Below, piece after piece: positions 6,617 to 13,887 of a stretch of DNA of 64,000 nt (position 1 is the stretch's first letter; every line of letters starts with the position of its first letter). This stretch comes from Candidatus Kapaibacterium sp. Its GTDB lineage: Bacteria > Bacteroidota > Ignavibacteria > Kapaibacteriales > WFXC01. Location of the stretch: assembly GCA_027082775.1 (NCBI GenBank), contig JALWUI010000063.1:4975-68974 (forward strand), given 5' to 3'. The notes beneath the pieces were generated by a model. It was given only the letters and a program-made list of their open reading frames with translations. It was not told the DNA's origin and did no database searches. Both the position numbers and the translations under genes were made by a program.

Positions 6617-6690
6617 GGGCCCTTAGCTCAAGTGGTTAGAGCAGCGGACTCATAATCCGCGGGTTGCAGGTTCGAGTCCTGCAGGGCCCA
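6617..6690 (+). tRNA. tRNA-Met (CAT anticodon); tRNA-Ile2 (lysidine) cannot be excluded
   Basis: Hand-folded cloverleaf: acceptor stem GGGCCCT/AGGGCCC, D arm GCTC..GAGC, anticodon stem GCGGA/TCCGC with loop CTCATAA, T arm GCAGG-TTCGAGT-CCTGC, discriminator A. The G1-C72 pair argues against an initiator tRNA. No CCA is encoded. Confidence 0.8.
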
Positions 6691-6744
6691 CTACCTTCCC
6701 TTTCTCCACATCCCTCATTCTCGATGACAGATGCGCTCATTTCA

Positions 6745-7135
6745 GTGTACACTTCTTGCCGGCTAAAGCCGGCGTTCCAGTTACTGGGAGCGCACACTTC
6801 AGTGTGCCTGGGAGCGCACGCTTCAGCGTGCATTCCCCTCACCCTAACCCTTTCCCAGAGGAAGAGGGGATTTCTTGCACCCGTAGGGGTGACCGGCTGG
6901 TCGTCCACCGGGCAAAGCACTGCTTCGCCCCGAGCATTGCACTGGGAGCGCACGCTTCCGTGTGCATCTTTGCCGACAAAAGTCGGTGCTCCCGGTGTTC
7001 GTACTCCCTCGCCCACAGGGAGAGAGGGAGGAGGTGGGGCCTTTGGCTGAACATCGCGCTTTCCCTTTCGCGCACTCCCATGGGGAGAGAGGCAGAAGGT
7101 GAGAGTGGGTATTTTTCATCTCTGTCACCTGGCGA
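6745..7135. repeat. Hairpin-array repeat cluster A (composite GC-rich palindromic units)
   Basis: Units such as CCGGCTAAAGCCGG, GCACGCTTCAGCGTGC, CCCCTC..GAGGGG, GCGACCGGCTGGTCGC and GGGCAAAGCACTGCTTCGCCC. It shares a ~150-nt module with cluster B. Confidence 0.7.
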
Positions 7136-7470
7136 TACAGATTTTTTTAGCACTACTTCTGTCAGTTGGGATACTTCGTTTGTCCAGTATCGGATAACTG
7201 TGAAACCTTTTGCTTCCAGAAAAGCGGTACGTTCTTCATCGTAGATTTTGTGTTGTGGCTCGGCGTGGTGACCGCCATCAATTTCGATGATGAGGCGTAA
7301 TTTCGTGGGAGTAGAAATCCACGATGTATGGACCAATTAGGATGCTGACGACGAAACTTGATTCCTAATAACTGATGGTTTCGGAGCAAATGCCATATTA
7401 AGTTTTCAGCATTACTTTGGTTCGTGCGAAGCGCACGGGCATAGGCAAGGAGCTTAGGGGGAGTTTTTCC
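7136..7470 (-). pseudogene. DUF559 (Vsr-like endonuclease domain) gene remnant, frameshifted; 3' end runs into the repeat cluster
   Basis: One frame (7162..7743) carries the N-terminal half (LLAYARALRTNQSNAENLIWHLLRNHQLLGIKFRRQHP). A second frame (6839..7336) carries the C-terminal half (LIIEIDGGHH...ERTAFLEAKGFTVIRYWTNEV). The junction lies near 7336. Confidence 0.55.
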
Positions 7471-8216
7471 CTCACCCCTAATTTCTCTCTCCAGGGGGAG
7501 CGGGAAATTTTGTCGATGGAGGTTTCGCGATAGTAGGCGGCACGCTTGGCGAACTTCTCGGGGATAGAATTGCCCGCTCGCAGGGCGTTGATCACCACGG
7601 GATCGAAGTCCACGAACCAGGACTTGAACAGTGCCTGCGCCATCGCCTCCAGCGTTTCGTTCATCCGCCGATTCAGCTCGATTTTGTCGTCCAGCGTGCC
7701 CAGAATGCGCGCAATGGCGCGTTGTTCGGGAAGGGGAGGACATCGGAACTTAAATTTTTTAATGCGATCTGGTGAAGTGTGTTTAACAGTTGTTCCAGTA
7801 GCTATTGCAAGAATTTGATGACGGTATTTTTCTGAGCACATCAAATAAAATAGAAAACGGATATCGATTATGTTTGGCTCTTTGATAACGATTTTGCCAA
7901 GCCGCTGGTTGTGAAGGTAGCGATGATTATCGCCTGAAGCTGGCACAAAAGCGGGAAGTCCCAAGATATCACCTTGTTTGCTCAAGTCCGTCATTGCGAC
8001 TATCAGGTCACCTTCTGTTAATACAAAGTCCTTTGGTACTGGCCCCTCATAATATTTCAATTTGTCATCTTTGAATCCCCCTCCAACTGCGAAGTTTCCT
8101 GGTGTAAGCAGGATATTGCCTGGTGGTTCGCTCCTGAAATATTTTCCTTTAAACGCATAGCCATGTTTGATGTCTATTACATCGCCCAGTGTTATTTCTT
8201 TCCATTCACTCCGCAT
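7398..8216 (-). CDS. hsdS: Type I restriction-modification specificity subunit HsdS (single target-recognition domain, half-size)
   Basis: One target-recognition domain followed by the conserved central HsdS helix region (LPEQRAIARILGTLDDKIELNRRMNETLEAMAQALFKSWFVDFDPV). There is no second TRD. Confidence 0.7.
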   Translation of the reverse strand: MRSEWKEITLGDVIDIKHGYAFKGKYFRSEPPGNILLTPGNFAVGGGFKDDKLKYYEGPVPKDFVLTEGDLIVAMTDLSKQGDILGLPAFVPASGDNHRYLHNQRLGKIVIKEPNIIDIRFLFYLMCSEKYRHQILAIATGTTVKHTSPDRIKKFKFRCPPLPEQRAIARILGTLDDKIELNRRMNETLEAMAQALFKSWFVDFDPVVINALRAGNSIPEKFAKRAAYYRETSIDKISRSPWREKLGVREKLPLSSLPMPVRFARTKVMLKT

Positions 8217-8264
8217 TACTCAGCACCTTCCACTTTTTAGTCAGTAACATAGCCGCGATTTTTA

Positions 8265-8753
8265 CTATCTCTCTAACACAAACCGGACCTTTTCCCGACG
8301 CAGCATTTCAAATGGAGTCATATGTCGAATTCCTAAACCGATGCAAACGTTCGGAAGTTTTACTTTCCGTCTGGTAGCTGCAGGAACTTCGTGTGTCACG
8401 AGCACGTAGTTCTGTGCCAGAGCATGTGCTACCAGGTAGTAGTCTGCTACCTGAAAGAAAGCGTTTATTGCGGCAAGATCGTAATTTTGAGTCATTACCC
8501 AACTGCTGACTTTACTGAATGCAGCGACAACCCATGTGTCAGGAGGAAGGAAAAAGTTTGCTTCACGCTGCTTTGCCCAGTCTGCCAGATCGTCATCGCC
8601 TGCGATTAACTCGTCCCTGACCTTTTCAATGCTGAAGACAAGTCCCTGAGCATTGGCAACGTCCAGCCAGTCCCAGAACGCCGGGCAAAAGTCAAAACCG
8701 TAATGGAGATTCTTTGCCTGGATGAAAACGTTCGAATCCAGTAGATACGCCAT
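8265..8753 (-). CDS. DUF4411-family PIN-like protein
   Basis: The N-terminus MAYLLDSNVFIQAKNLHYGFDFCPAFWDWL matches my recollection of the DUF4411 signature. The start ATG overlaps the stop of the upstream HTH-ImmA gene (ATGA). Confidence 0.6.
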   Translation of the reverse strand: MAYLLDSNVFIQAKNLHYGFDFCPAFWDWLDVANAQGLVFSIEKVRDELIAGDDDLADWAKQREANFFLPPDTWVVAAFSKVSSWVMTQNYDLAAINAFFQVADYYLVAHALAQNYVLVTHEVPAATRRKVKLPNVCIGLGIRHMTPFEMLRREKVRFVLER

Positions 8754-9904
8754 TATCCGATTCCCAGCTCTTGCGCGAATTTCTTGAGGGTTTGAGTCTT
8801 CAGAATGCCTAACATCGTATAAGCGTCCCGAAATAGCGTCTGTCCTTCCAGCGTACTGCTGACCAATGCCAGAGCAAAACGCTTGCTGACTTTGCGAGCG
8901 AGATTATAGTAGAAGTTCCCACCTTTGTTTCCAGCTAATGTCTGCTTATAGCTTTTTACCCGCTTTTGCTCCTCTTCATACACTTGCCGGTAGGCTTCCC
9001 GGCTCAGGAGCTCTGCGTCGAACAACCGTCTGAGAATCACCAGTGTGCTGACCTTGAATATGCGAGCCAGGCGTTGCAATTCCTGTCGTAAGTCATTTTT
9101 GGTGTTGAAATTTTCTACTAATGTAGTGATGGGCACCAGCAGCTCTGCTGCTACCTGGTTGCACCAGCGTTCCACGGTTTCTTCCGGATATCTCTCAAGA
9201 CTGGCATCCGATATTCCCGATTTGCCCAGCCAGATATGCGCCAGTTCGTGAGCCAGCGTGAAGGTTTTACCGGCAATAGTGTCAGCTCCATTGATAAAAA
9301 TCACCGGTGCTAAGGCGTCTACCAGAGCGAAACCGCGGAACTCTTCCGGATCCAGAGGGCGATGGGTATTGTTCCCCACCACACCATTCATCATTACCAG
9401 AATACCAGCCTCTTCTACCCGATCGATAAAGTAACTGAGCGCTTGCGTCCAGGTGGGAATGGCACGCCGTTTCTCAATCTCCAGATTGATCCGATCGCGG
9501 ATGGTAGCTGCGATGACACTTGCGTCGTCCGCTACGGTCGCTGACCCGACAAACGGCAGCGGTGTTGCTCCTTGAGCCAGCAGGTAATCGCGATACCACT
9601 CTTGCCGTTGCTGGCAAATATAAATGGTTTCCAGCAGCTCCGGGCTGGGGCGGGAAAGTCTTGCCTGAGGCATGGTACGAAAGTCCGGGATGGGCAATGG
9701 TTCCTCCGGTGGCGCTTCCAGGAAGAAAAAACCCAGCGGTACTCGAAAGGTTTTTGCCAGCCGCTCCAGTTGTTTCAAGGTCGGTTGACTTTTCCCGCTT
9801 TCCCATTCCTCATATCGTGGAAATGTTTTCGTGAGCGCATCTATCGTACCCTCAGCACGTTCTCTGGCCCATCGGAGGAGTTCCGGTTTAATGGTGACCC
9901 GCAT
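8753..9904 (-). CDS. XRE-family HTH fused to an ImmA/IrrE-family (COG2856) zinc metallopeptidase
   Basis: N-terminal HTH region (TLKQLERLAKTFRVPLGFFF); HEXXH motif within TLAHELAHIWLGKSGISD. Confidence 0.75.
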   Translation of the reverse strand: MRVTIKPELLRWARERAEGTIDALTKTFPRYEEWESGKSQPTLKQLERLAKTFRVPLGFFFLEAPPEEPLPIPDFRTMPQARLSRPSPELLETIYICQQRQEWYRDYLLAQGATPLPFVGSATVADDASVIAATIRDRINLEIEKRRAIPTWTQALSYFIDRVEEAGILVMMNGVVGNNTHRPLDPEEFRGFALVDALAPVIFINGADTIAGKTFTLAHELAHIWLGKSGISDASLERYPEETVERWCNQVAAELLVPITTLVENFNTKNDLRQELQRLARIFKVSTLVILRRLFDAELLSREAYRQVYEEEQKRVKSYKQTLAGNKGGNFYYNLARKVSKRFALALVSSTLEGQTLFRDAYTMLGILKTQTLKKFAQELGIG

Positions 9905-9989
9905 AGCACTTTTGCTGTTCTTTGTTTCCCATCTCCAATAGATCTGTGTCTTGATTCAGCTACACGCTTCGCCGGGAAGCTGCTGACTC

Positions 9990-10073
9990 GCTTGGCACAT
10001 AAGCGTTATTCAACGAACGTTTAATAACGCGCTGGCTTATTCAACGAAAAGGGCGTTTCGTTTAATAAGATGG
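9990..10073. promoter_or_regulatory. Direct-repeat element upstream of the HTH-ImmA gene (candidate operator)
   Basis: Two copies of TTATTCAACGAA...CGTTTAATAA lie 36 bp apart in the hsdM-ImmA intergenic region. Confidence 0.3.
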
Positions 10074-11627
10074 CTATTTCCCATACCCCAACACCTGTAG
10101 GTTCTTGCGAATTTCTGCTTCCAGCCGGCGACTTTCTTCGAACTGCTCATAGAGCTGTGCGGTCAACGCTGCCATCTTCTGCTCGAAGGGGACATCGTCG
10201 TCTTCTTTTTCCTCCACACCCACGTAACGTCCTGGCGTAAGGACGTAATCGTGTTTGCGGATGTCCTCGATGGTAGCTGACTTCCACCAGCCGGGTTTGT
10301 CTTCGTAACCCTTACCTCGCTTCCAGGCGTGGTACACGTCGGCGATCTGGCGGATTTCCTCCTGCGTGAGTTCCCGGTGCGTGCGGTCGACCAGCCGTCC
10401 CATTCGGCGGGCGTCGATGAAGAGCGTCTCGCCGGTGCGGTCGCGCCAGCCGCGCCTCGGATTGCTTTTCTTGGTGCGGGTAATGAACCAGAGGCAGGCG
10501 GGGATCGGCGTGGTGTAGAAGAGTTGCCCCGGCAGGGCAACGATACACTCTATCAAATCATCTTCGATGATTCCTTTGCAGATGGCAAATTCTGCTTTGG
10601 TGGAAGTGGATAGCGAACCATTCGCCATCACAAAGCCGGCTGTGCCGTTCGGAGCCAGGTGGTAGATGAAATGCTGGATCCAGGCGTAGTTCGCATTGCC
10701 CGCCGGTGGAACCCCGTACTTCCATCGAGGATCTTCCCGCAGCCGCTCACCGCCCCAATGACTCATATTGAACGGTGGATTGGCGAGAATGTAGTCGGCT
10801 CTGAGGTCTTTGTGCAGGTCGTTCAGGAAAGTGTCTGCCGGGTGTGGACCAAGATCTGCCTCGATGCGGCGAATTGCCAGATTCATTTTTGCCAGTCGCC
10901 AGGTGGTCGGGTTGGATTCCTGCCCATAAATAGCAATGTCACCAAGTTTGCCGCCGTGCGCTTCTACAAAGCGTTCTGACTGGATGAACATCCCGCCGGA
11001 GCCGCAACAGGGGTCATAGACTCTTCCCCGATAGGGCTCGATCATTTCGACCAGCAACTGCACCACACACTGAGGCGTATAGAACTCGCCTCCACCTTTG
11101 CCTTCAGCAGCCGCGAATCGACCTAAGAAGTACTCGTACACCCGTCCCAGTGGATCTTTGACTCCATACTCGCGGGCACGCAGGTCGATGTCCCCCACCA
11201 GCTTGACCAGCTCTCCCAGCCGGATTTTGTCCAGCGTTGGACGAGCGTAATTTTTAGGTAGCACGCCTTTGAGTGGCGGGTTTTCACGTTCGATCGCTTC
11301 CATTGCCTGATCAATTACCTGCCCAATCTCAGGTTGTGGCGCAGCCGCCTGAATTCGGTCCCAGCGTGCCTCTGGCGGTACCCAGAATACATTTGCCGCC
11401 AGATATTCGTCGCGGTCCTCTGGATCAGCATATTCCGTCTCTTGCAGTGCTTTCAGTTCCTCGTATTTCTTCTGAAACGCATCGGAGATGTACTTCAGAA
11501 AGATCAGCCCCAGCACCGTATGTTTGTACTCGGCTGCGTCCATATGGCCCCGCAATCGGTCAGCCATTTCCCAGAGTTTCTTTTCAAACCCCAAAGTTGC
11601 TCCGTTGGTCTGGATATCACTCATCAT
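10074..11627 (-). CDS. hsdM: Type I restriction-modification N6-adenine DNA methyltransferase subunit HsdM
   Basis: HsdM N-terminal domain, AdoMet motif DPCCGSGGM, and catalytic motif NPPFN. Confidence 0.9.
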
Positions 11628-11794
11628 CGATCCTCCGATGGGTTTTGTTCAGATTCAGTGTTCCCCAATTCGATTGCGTAAACAGTAAATCCACGATGCA
11701 GTGAGAAAAGCATTGCTTGTATGCTGAAAAGCTGCTGGGGTGAGCGTTCATCTGAAGAAAGGAAGACTTCCAGCAGGGAAGTTGCCCGTTTGCC

Positions 11795-12035
11795 GGGGGC
11801 GCACGCTTCAGCGTACATTCCCCTCACCCTAACCCTTTCCCAGAGGAAGAGGGGATTTCTTGCACCCGTAGGGGCGACCGGCTGGTCGCTCACCGGGCGA
11901 AGCACCACTTCGCCCCTACCATTGCACCGGGAGCGCACACTTCAGTGTGCACTTCCGATCCTTCTGCCGGCGAAAGCCGGCGCTTCCAGTTGTTGCCAGC
12001 AAGAGCTGGCGCTTTTCGCGCTTTTTCGTTGTAGA
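11795..12035. repeat. Hairpin-array repeat cluster B
   Basis: Positions 11796-11945 are about 93% identical to 6810-6960 of cluster A in the same orientation. Additional hairpins: GCACACTTCAGTGTGC, CCGGCGAAAGCCGG. Confidence 0.7.
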
Positions 12036-12094
12036 GGAGAGCACGGGCTGGGTGCGGGGGAGTTCGCCGCTGGTGATTCGGGCGGTTACCTGCC

Positions 12095-12811
12095 TTACTC
12101 TGACTGTTCCTGCTGGAACCGGAGATAATCGATGGTTGCTCGGACGTGGGCGAAGATGCTGCGCCACATTGCGTCGGTGAGGCGTCCGGTGAGGGTGTTC
12201 TGCTGGCTCGGATGGTAGGAGCCGATGAGGTAGTACGTGTCGAGTTGTACCGTTGCCCCGTGGTGGAACCGGGGTTTCGGTCTGGGAATGGGAACGTCGA
12301 AGGAGCGGAGCAGCTGCAGGCTGGTTTCCCACGCTATGCCGCCTAAGGCAAGAAGAACGCGGACGTTGGGTAGCAGTGAGAACTCTGCCCGGAGATACTC
12401 GAAACAGTTCTGGCGTTCTTCGCGCGTCGGCAGGTTGTTGGGGGGTACACACCGGACCGCGGCAGTGATGTAGCAATTGCTGAGCGTCAGCCCATCGTCG
12501 CGGGAAATGGATTCCGGCTGGGAGGCAAAGCCGTATTCGAAGAGGGCGCGGTAGAGCCACTCTCCACTTCGGTCGCCGGTGAACATTCTGCCTGTCCGGT
12601 TTGCACCGTGGGCGCCGGGCGCTAAGCCGACAATGAGGAGCATTGCATTGGGATCACCAAAGCCGGGAACAGGCTTGCCCCAGTACTCCCAGTCCTGATA
12701 CTTGCGCCGCTTGACCGTTGCAACCTGCTGCCGCCATTGTACTAAGCGTGGGCATTTTGTGCACGCTACCAGTGAGGCATTGAGCGCTTCGAGCGAAATG
12801 AATTTTTTCAT
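12095..12811 (-). CDS. Uracil-DNA glycosylase superfamily protein (family 4/5-like, Fe-S type)
   Basis: CTKCPRL Fe-S cysteine motif and GLAPGAHGANRTGRMFTGD active-site region. Confidence 0.8.
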   Translation of the reverse strand: MKKFISLEALNASLVACTKCPRLVQWRQQVATVKRRKYQDWEYWGKPVPGFGDPNAMLLIVGLAPGAHGANRTGRMFTGDRSGEWLYRALFEYGFASQPESISRDDGLTLSNCYITAAVRCVPPNNLPTREERQNCFEYLRAEFSLLPNVRVLLALGGIAWETSLQLLRSFDVPIPRPKPRFHHGATVQLDTYYLIGSYHPSQQNTLTGRLTDAMWRSIFAHVRATIDYLRFQQEQSE

Positions 12812-13887
12812 TGTTGTCCCTTTGCGTTGCGGATGATGGCAATGATTGCTTCGATGAGCACACCTTCAGCATTTTCCCCCGACCGCTTAATGCGGGCATC
12901 AGCCTGATACAGGATGTCCAGTGCCTGTACAATTGCTTTCAGAGGGAATTGCTGGAGAGCGGCAAGGTATTCGGGGATGAAAAATGCGTTGATCCCGGTG
13001 ATTTTGCTCAATTCCTGCGTGTTCCGTTTCCGAAGCTGCGCAAGTTTCAGAAGAACAGTAAAGTAGCGGGTGAGCATTGTCAGGATGATTAGTGACTGAC
13101 GCTGAACGGTTAAAAGGTGCTTGAGTATCCGGAGCGCTCGCGGCAAATCCGCCTTACCGATTGCTGTCTGAAGATCAAAGATAGTATGCTCACGTGCAAA
13201 TCCTGCCAGCGCGGCAACATCCTCAGCGGTGATCTTCGGACGATCGCCCACGTAGAGAACGAGCTTTTCAATTTCGTTGTGGACTGCATAGAGCGAATCG
13301 CCGGCATACTGGATCAGCAATTCCAGAGCGTCGGGGTCGATGGATTTGCCGTGCTGCCGGATGCGCTCCCCTGCCCACGACGGGATTTCCCGGTCATACA
13401 GTTTCGGATGCTCGATCCACAAATGGCGTTCTAACAACAACGGGAAGGGAAACGGTGCTTTCCGCAGTTTCTTCTCCACCGTTGCCTGATGCCGCGGTTT
13501 GTTGAGCTGCCGGCTGATGCCGTCCAGGGTGGGGAGAGAAGCAACGAAGACCAGCGTGTTTTCCGGGATCGGGCGTTCTAAGAGTTGACGCAACAGGGTT
13601 CCCTCTTTGCGCTTCTCCAGCTTTGCCAGCCGTTCGGCGCGACGTAAAATAAGCAGCCGCCGGCTGCCCAAAAGAGGATAAGCCATCATCCGGCTGAGCA
13701 GTTGCTCCGGCGGAAGCTCTTCACAGTTCAGGAATTCCACCTGCTGCGACGTAACACCCCGTCGGTAGGCTTCCTGCAGCAATTGCTGGAGCGTTTCTTC
13801 CACCAGCAACCGTTCTTCGCCAAAGATGAGCAGCACAGGCGGCAACTGCTTTGCCTTTCGTAAAGCCGCGATCGTGACTGGTTTCAT
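12808..13887 (-). CDS. holA: DNA polymerase III subunit delta
   Basis: HolA-like overall architecture and length. Its stop overlaps the udg start by 4 bp. Confidence 0.7.
   Translation of the reverse strand: MKPVTIAALRKAKQLPPVLLIFGEERLLVEETLQQLLQEAYRRGVTSQQVEFLNCEELPPEQLLSRMMAYPLLGSRRLLILRRAERLAKLEKRKEGTLLRQLLERPIPENTLVFVASLPTLDGISRQLNKPRHQATVEKKLRKAPFPFPLLLERHLWIEHPKLYDREIPSWAGERIRQHGKSIDPDALELLIQYAGDSLYAVHNEIEKLVLYVGDRPKITAEDVAALAGFAREHTIFDLQTAIGKADLPRALRILKHLLTVQRQSLIILTMLTRYFTVLLKLAQLRKRNTQELSKITGINAFFIPEYLAALQQFPLKAIVQALDILYQADARIKRSGENAEGVLIEAIIAIIRNAKGQQ

Follow-up and report, generated by a model that had tools for sequence, protein, structure and literature searches.

A two-gene module in a stretch of DNA from Candidatus Kapaibacterium sp. 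(contig JALWUI010000063.1; the whole stretch, 64,000 nucleotides long, is called the window below) probably constitutes a toxin-antitoxin (TA) system of the VapBC52 type, similar to RosmerTA, in which a PIN-domain RNase is controlled by a self-cleaving antitoxin with helix-turn-helix (HTH) and peptidase domains and is released in response to a signal. The two genes lie on the minus strand among genes of a type I restriction-modification (RM) operon, in the order hsdM, HTH-M78 peptidase gene, DUF4411 gene, hsdS, all co-oriented. The assignment is based on homology, on catalytic and cleavage motifs, on the predicted domain layout, on the obligate pairing of the two genes and on the frequent residence of such pairs in type I RM operons. 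The initial annotation had viewed the genes as a protease-regulated toxin or defence module, a reading that the homology to VapBC52 supports (E values of 1e-25 and 1.5e-8), and had added that the function of the pairing was not established. The latter statement is outdated. The architecture is already known: it was predicted in 2017 (Matelska et al., PMC5499597), and both the structure and the biochemistry of a homologue were worked out in 2026 (Singh et al., NAR 2026, PMC13273310). New here are the measured frequency with which this clade is embedded in RM operons and the clade-wide loss of a cysteine switch.

VapBC52 of Mycobacterium tuberculosis (antitoxin Rv2515c, toxin Rv2514c; PDB entries 9VZY and 9VZZ) is described as follows in the available passages of its report, from which all statements on this system are taken (PMC13273310). 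The toxin, VapC52, is a PIN-domain tRNase whose cuts fall in anticodon or variable loops. VapB52, unusually large for an antitoxin, has three parts, an HTH-like N-terminal domain (NTD), a zinc peptidase of the M78/IrrE type and a four-helix C-terminal domain (CTD). In the complex, whose VapB52:VapC52 stoichiometry is 1:2, the NTD grips the outside of the toxin dimer and the CTD occludes the active site of VapC52. Single-stranded DNA (ssDNA) induces VapB52 to cut off its own NTD at a linker carrying a conserved 'FR' motif, an event proposed to free the toxin. A cysteine of VapB52 acts as fourth zinc ligand, and a 'cysteine switch' has been proposed to hold both VapB52 and the peptidase CapP inactive until ssDNA is bound.

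The window pair shares with VapBC52 the two protein families, the gene order, the HEXXH+Glu site, the DFR linker and the acidic residues of the toxin, as well as a predicted layout of the antitoxin into a five-helix NTD, a peptidase domain and a four-helix CTD. It differs from it by a serine in place of the switch cysteine throughout its clade, and by a frequent residence of that clade in type I RM operons, of which the available passages on VapBC52 make no mention. The hosts also differ, that of VapBC52 being actinobacterial and that of the window apparently a member of the Fibrobacteres-Chlorobi-Bacteroidetes (FCB) group.

Sequence and predicted structure of the two proteins

The 162-aa product of the downstream gene matches the Pfam DUF4411 profile over its whole length (positions 1-159 of 159; 186 bits, E 4e-55). 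When PDB sequences were searched, each window protein gave one strong match, and both matches fell within a single entry. For the 162-aa protein these were chain D of 9VZY and its counterpart in 9VZZ ('DUF4411 family protein'), with an E value of 1.5e-8 that reached 1.5e-10 using the family profile. Residues D6, E48, D104 and E122 are invariant across 33 toxin homologues (65-80% identity), and the last three align with acidic residues of VapC52. The AlphaFold2 (AF2) model, with a mean predicted local distance difference test (pLDDT) score of 87, is a PIN fold; its top PDB matches are VapC2, Shigella VapC, FitB and several M. tuberculosis VapCs, each with a probability of 1.0. The DUF4411 protein is thus most likely a metal-dependent endoribonuclease of the PIN fold and, by analogy with VapC52, would cut tRNA in the anticodon or variable loop.

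The upstream gene encodes a 383-aa protein that matches Pfam Peptidase_M78 at residues 164-294 (61.6 bits, E 8e-17) and HTH_3 at residues 26-59 (27 bits, for a cut-off of 23 bits). Its residues 6-348 are collinear with residues 3-356 of chain A of 9VZY, a 393-aa 'HTH cro/C1-type domain-containing protein' (phmmer E 1.1e-25). Four residues of the predicted zinc site, H219, E220, H223 and E245, are invariant in 75/75 antitoxin orthologues and align with the HEFVH motif and the Glu of VapB52. The D74-F75-R76 triplet aligns with the DFR ('FR motif') of VapB52; D74 and R76 are kept in all 75 orthologues and F75 in 64 of them. In the AF2 model (pLDDT 81.8) the linker carrying this triplet (residues 67-85) has a pLDDT below 50, a second low-confidence loop occurs at 232-240, and a disordered linker (321-328) precedes the C-terminal helical domain. 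That domain is only partly covered by the VapB52 alignment, which stops at residue 348. By analogy with the mycobacterial protein, the N-terminal HTH domain would bind the toxin, and possibly DNA, and the C-terminal domain would plug the PIN active site.

Structural comparisons point in the same direction. The PDB set available to Foldseek had a cut-off of April 2026 and did not include 9VZY; among the remaining entries, the nearest folds of the antitoxin were CapP (7T5T), IrrE (3DTE), PprI bound to ssDNA (8SLN) and PrpR, and its N-terminal domain resembled C.Csp231I, an RM controller protein. The same neighbours are reported for VapB52 (PMC13273310). CapP/CapH, a regulator of CBASS (anti-phage signalling based on cyclic oligonucleotides), IrrE/DdrO and ImmA/ImmR share the M78 peptidase fold with the window antitoxin, and this fold gives its best structural matches; the CapP and PprI peptidases are activated by ssDNA or damage signals. 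Unlike the window antitoxin, these peptidases cleave a separate HTH repressor and thereby turn transcription on; the window protein carries HTH and peptidase on a single chain, and its output would be toxin release. A separate repressor gene that might encode the peptidase substrate was looked for, and there is no small HTH open reading frame (ORF) between hsdM and hsdS.

The antitoxin is also matched by 16 RmrA models of PADLOC, the best with 66 bits (E 5e-19). Some of these matches span residues 6-314 and most are limited to the peptidase core. RosmerTA systems (RmrT/RmrA; Millman et al. 2022; Ernits et al. 2023, PMC10440598) likewise combine an ImmA-like zinc-peptidase antitoxin, often with an N-terminal HTH, and a toxin. 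They differ in that the characterised RmrT toxins are unrelated to the window toxin, the phage Kita RmrT acting by depolarising the membrane. In NetFlax, antitoxins of the ImmA node are found paired with PIN-like toxins (PMC10440598).

The window antitoxin departs from VapB52 at the position of the cysteine switch. Nine residues past the second His of the zinc site, where VapB52 reads GLCD, the window antitoxin reads GISD, with Ser232 at the switch position. Serine occupies this position in 72/75 orthologues, and cysteine in none of the 75.

Pairing and genomic context across related loci

DUF4411 proteins form a large family, in which no fewer than 7,982 clusters (90% identity) could be scored; of the clusters built at 50% identity, 3,781 reach an E value of 1e-3. 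A scan with one genome per species yielded at least 591 close relatives, from which 80 loci, distributed over more than 15 phyla, were examined. In 76 of the 80, the gene immediately upstream, on the same strand, is a homologue of the peptidase gene; the exceptions, four in number, are explained by contig ends or by artefacts of ORF calling. The loci nearest to the window pair come from Bacteroidetes and Calditrichaeota metagenome-assembled genomes.

In nearly all loci the antitoxin and toxin genes overlap by 1 nt or 4 nt, or directly abut. On the minus strand the window junction has the sequence GATAATGG, in which a single A belongs both to the stop codon TAA (8755-8753) and to the start codon ATG (8753-8751). 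The coupled overlap that the initial annotation had placed at 8753 therefore exists, as a 1-nt TAATG overlap rather than as ATGA. A relative with about 98% identity (P0393, 547 aa), from a near-identical strain and encoded on a ~141-kb contig, has lost the stop codon at this TAATG junction and carries antitoxin and toxin in one in-frame fusion ('...QELGIRIMAYLLDSN...'). This could be a genuine Rosetta-stone case or a product of faulty assembly; the fusion is compatible with a physical complex of antitoxin and toxin. Two loci devoid of RM genes (L018:3924-8717 and L030:3741-8648) have a gene for a protein of about 1,600 aa directly upstream of the pair on the same strand.

PIN-like toxins in type I RM operons, including hsdM/hsdS operons with no obvious restriction enzyme, had been noted by Matelska et al. 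(PMC5499597), who also predicted a 'three-component' TA system in which DUF4411.1 lies downstream of a fused HTH-DUF955 (COG2856) gene. This is exactly the architecture found in the window. Their study was purely computational and gave no RM-embedding frequency specific to DUF4411. In the 76 loci with both genes, RM genes were identified by local phmmer searches seeded with HsdM, HsdS and HsdR, and a pair was called embedded when RM genes flanked it on both sides on the same strand. The pair is embedded in 19 loci, adjacent to RM genes in 15 and has no RM gene nearby in 42. When only the 40 loci flanked by 5 kb or more on both sides are considered, the corresponding counts are 13, 5 and 22. 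Thus 34/76 pairs (about 45%) lie in or beside type I RM operons, in line with the initial annotation, which had drawn on a pattern of accessory defence genes inserted into such operons. A random gene would be expected to adjoin type I RM genes in far fewer than 45% of cases. The Pfam content of the two nearest neighbours concurs, with Methylase_S (18 hits) and N6_Mtase (11) upstream and HSDR_N (17) downstream; Abi_C, Abi_2, DarT and GmrSD are occasional neighbours.

The most frequent order is hsdM-hsdS-pair-hsdR, and most embedded loci have hsdR directly downstream. The window order, hsdM-pair-hsdS, is shared with its closest relatives, L001, L003 and L004; hsdR lies upstream in L003 and downstream in L004. 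Among 2.9 million viral contigs only five close relatives were found, four of them within an hsdM-hsdS-pair-hsdR operon, which argues against a phage lysogeny switch as the main role of the pair, even though each protein has a PHROG family. One PHROG, phrog_2439, carries the label 'transcriptional regulator'.

Other effectors occupy similar sites. PrrC and DarTG2 (Payne et al. 2024 preprint; PMC12255303) are, as proposed for the window pair, abortive-infection or TA effectors inside hsd operons, usually in the slot between hsdS and hsdR, which is where DarTG2 sits in enteropathogenic Escherichia coli (PMC12255303). Their proteins are unrelated to those of the window, whose pair lies between hsdM and hsdS instead, and PrrC is kept latent by the RM enzyme where the window toxin would be kept latent by its own antitoxin. 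The available supplementary text of the Payne et al. preprint contains no DUF4411 or M78 terms.

The RM remnant surrounding the pair

Features of the locus are listed in Table 1. The ORFs lie, on the minus strand, at exactly the coordinates given in the initial annotation, and a Pfam profile search upheld all of its domain calls, both on the pair (HTH, M78/ImmA, DUF4411) and on the hsd neighbours. The placement of the pair between hsdM and hsdS stands as well, with spacers of 169 bp from hsdM to the peptidase gene and 48 bp from the DUF4411 gene to hsdS. The operon itself is incomplete: what surrounds the pair is an RM remnant with half an hsdS and no hsdR in 64 kb. This same arrangement is found on two independent metagenome contigs.

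Table 1. Features of the VapBC52-like locus and its surroundings in the window
Feature	Position	Strand	Evidence
hsdM, type I RM methyltransferase subunit, 517 aa, intact	10074..11627	-	Pfam, PADLOC
Two tandem palindromes with shared half-sites (TTATTCAACG / CGTTTAATAA)	10003..10069		inverted repeats 10036-10069, 10003-10030
Antitoxin gene, VapB52-like, 383 aa	8753..9904	-	Pfam, phmmer, AF2, Foldseek
N-terminal HTH domain, residues 1-61	9722..9904	-	HTH_3 match; five predicted helices, 7-61
Asp74-Phe75-Arg76 motif in the disordered NTD-to-peptidase linker; predicted self-cleavage site	9677..9685	-	VapB52 alignment
HELAH zinc-binding motif (His219, Glu220, His223)	9236..9250	-	read from sequence
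Third zinc ligand, Glu245	9170-9172	-	conservation, VapB52 alignment
C-terminal helical domain, residues about 329-383	8756..8920	-	four predicted helices, 331-379
Toxin gene, DUF4411 PIN-like nuclease, VapC52-like, 162 aa	8265..8753	-	Pfam, homologue alignment, AF2
Half-size hsdS, 272 aa, first target-recognition domain and central conserved region	7398..8216	-	PADLOC, tblastn
Remnant of DUF559 (Vsr-like endonuclease fold), spread across two other frames	6839..7743	-	Pfam
tRNA-Met, bordering the island	6617..6691	+	ARAGORN

The hsdM product scores 743 bits against the PADLOC MTase_I model and contains N6_Mtase (357 bits) and HsdM_N. The hsdS product matches Methylase_S with 63.7 bits but covers only positions 1-212 of the 446-position PADLOC profile, and tblastn with five full-size HsdS proteins covers 8219-7545 only. 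The second target-recognition domain (TRD) is missing; in its place is a frameshifted DUF559 domain, detected by Pfam on ORFs 7743..7162 and 7336..6839, its sequence broken by two frameshifts. In L003, whose hsdM is 85% identical to that of the window, the same half-HsdS and a complete DUF559 form one open frame (L003:10573-11625). Searched by tblastn with five HsdR seeds, the 64-kb window contains no hsdR homologue, and its large ORFs encode surface proteins, not helicases. The host RM operon in the window is a decayed remnant; hsdM and the one-TRD hsdS represent either an orphan methyltransferase (possibly with a dimer of S halves) or a decaying system. The protein database also contains full-size HsdS proteins that have a DUF559 domain inside them, at a length of about 580 aa (P0397, for instance), or that begin with nucleotidyltransferase domains, at about 525-540 aa. 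Such in-frame accessory domains of HsdS may deserve a separate study.

The missing hsdR raises the question of whether the DUF4411 protein acts as a substitute restriction nuclease, cutting DNA and not RNA on behalf of an M+S system. The operons with a PIN-like gene, hsdM, hsdS and no obvious restriction enzyme reported by Matelska et al. (PMC5499597) would fit such a role. We consider it exceedingly improbable, because most embedded loci have an hsdR of their own directly downstream of the pair, the closest syntenic relatives, L003 and L004, have one too, and the pair also occurs where there are no RM genes whatever. Moreover, the fold matches VapC RNases, and VapC52 cleaves tRNAs (PMC13273310).

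The two palindromes follow immediately upon the hsdM stop codon, 100-165 nt upstream of the antitoxin start, in a region with an RNA fold z-score of -2.7, and could be an operator or a hairpin. A scan for sigma-70 promoters across 7300-12100 found none, a result that is uninformative for such an organism. Palindromes just upstream of the antitoxin gene might suggest that the HTH-peptidase is a regulator, either a C protein or an ImmA/IrrE-type anti-repressor tuning the hsd genes, with DUF4411 as an accessory. The resemblance of the NTD to C.Csp231I, described for VapB52 as well (PMC13273310), and the label of phrog_2439 would agree with this. We nevertheless judge a regulatory switch very unlikely. 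No conserved operator precedes the antitoxin gene in 75 loci: the window palindromes are local and are not kept in orthologous loci, and in L003 and L006 the antitoxin gene overlaps hsdM, leaving no room for an intergenic operator. No separate gene for a repressor substrate is present, 42/76 loci lack an RM gene nearby, and the partner is in every case a PIN nuclease that has kept its catalytic tetrad.

On the far side of the RM/TA block lie two housekeeping genes, for uracil-DNA glycosylase (12811..12095) and holA (13887..12808), and the GC content falls to 0.43-0.47 across 7800-8800. The tRNA-Met border and the housekeeping genes fit a small genomic island inserted beside a tRNA gene. Two direct repeats of 157 nt, 92% identical (6810-6966 and 11795-11951), bracket the block from hsdM to DUF559. 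They were considered as island boundaries and rejected, since the window contains at least six further copies (near 29.9k, 34.2k, 37.6k, 42.9k, 48.1k and 61.7k), and they belong to a dispersed family of intergenic repeats. This repeat (~160 nt) holds 25-nt sub-repeats such as ACTGGGAGCGCACACTTCAGTGTGC and, on translation, gives a 'PLxLWERVRVRG'-like peptide of the kind that frequently accompanies DUF559 genes. A neighbouring gene in the window encodes a type IX secretion system (T9SS) sorting domain, which, together with the Bacteroidetes and Calditrichaeota origin of the nearest loci, suggests a host of the FCB group.

The persistence of an intact pair amid operon decay fits either independent selection or an addictive character. 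In the latter case, the pair would be a selfish module that stabilises its own island or RM operon by post-segregational killing and plays no part in phage defence. The loss of hsdR and of half of hsdS around an intact pair, the abutting tRNA-Met gene, the occurrence of the family at 60-80% identity over many phyla, as expected of mobile DNA, and the report that intact VapBC52 confers no phage protection in M. smegmatis (PMC13273310) all speak for such a module. It remains unlikely in our estimate, since the pair is enriched in defence operons, where it can occupy the same hsdS-hsdR slot as DarTG2 (PMC12255303), and has Abi_C, Abi_2, DarT and GmrSD among its neighbours. Furthermore, an ssDNA-sensing peptidase of the CapP/IrrE type suits the sensing of infection or damage more than that of plasmid loss, and the related RosmerTA systems do defend against phages.

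Proposed mechanism and biological role

For the preferred reading, a VapBC52-type TA module, we rely on the mycobacterial homologue to infer how the window pair would form a complex, what would trigger it, that the antitoxin would cleave itself and which RNA the toxin would attack. The toxin would be made together with the 383-aa antitoxin encoded upstream and be kept inactive by it, the N-terminal HTH domain gripping the toxin dimer and the C-terminal helical domain blocking the active site. In the mycobacterial homologue the trigger is ssDNA, such as arises when DNA is damaged or a phage replicates. Once triggered, the M78/IrrE-type zinc peptidase of the antitoxin would cut the flexible linker of its own protein at the conserved Asp-Phe-Arg. 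Loss of the N-terminal domain would free the toxin, translation would stop, and the cell would arrest or the infection abort. In the window genome the pair would now work on its own, because its host RM operon has decayed. A role in abortive-infection defence is plausible, given the genomic context and the precedent of RosmerTA.

Several points weigh against this interpretation. The window pair is distant from VapBC52, with low identity; the alignment of the toxin to VapC52 is partial, spanning residues 23-147 only. None of the PADLOC v2 models, RmrT included, matches the DUF4411 protein. In 42/76 loci the pair has no RM gene nearby. The absence of the cysteine switch means that the trigger and the mode of auto-inhibition may differ in this clade. 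Finally, defence by an intact system of the VapBC52 type is unproven, because in M. smegmatis phage protection was seen only when VapC52 was over-expressed alone and was lost upon co-expression of the antitoxin (PMC13273310).

A closer link is conceivable, in which the pair does not just sit in the RM operon but works together with type I restriction, adding an abortive second line of defence. The peptidase would sense single-stranded or fragmented DNA arising from translocation and cutting by HsdR, or from overwhelmed restriction, and a tRNA-cutting toxin would then be released. PrrC is an anticodon nuclease, and the module would be comparable to the PrrC-EcoprrI arrangement in a self-contained form. 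Such coupling strikes us as rather improbable. Were it true, the serine found in place of the switch cysteine would mark a different activation mechanism in the RM-associated clade.

As a VapBC52-type module, the pair can be annotated as a VapBC52-like TA system rather than as an 'ImmA/IrrE peptidase + DUF4411', and it provides the VapBC52/RosmerTA-like class with a clean and intact example from outside the actinobacteria. What activates a peptidase devoid of the cysteine switch, and whether restriction and toxin act in series, are questions that can now be tested. Of the genomic arguments that tie DUF4411 modules to defence, the strongest to date is the proximity to RM genes in ~45% of the loci of this clade, and it matters because the sole experimental phage data, in the available passages on VapBC52, come from over-expression of the toxin alone.

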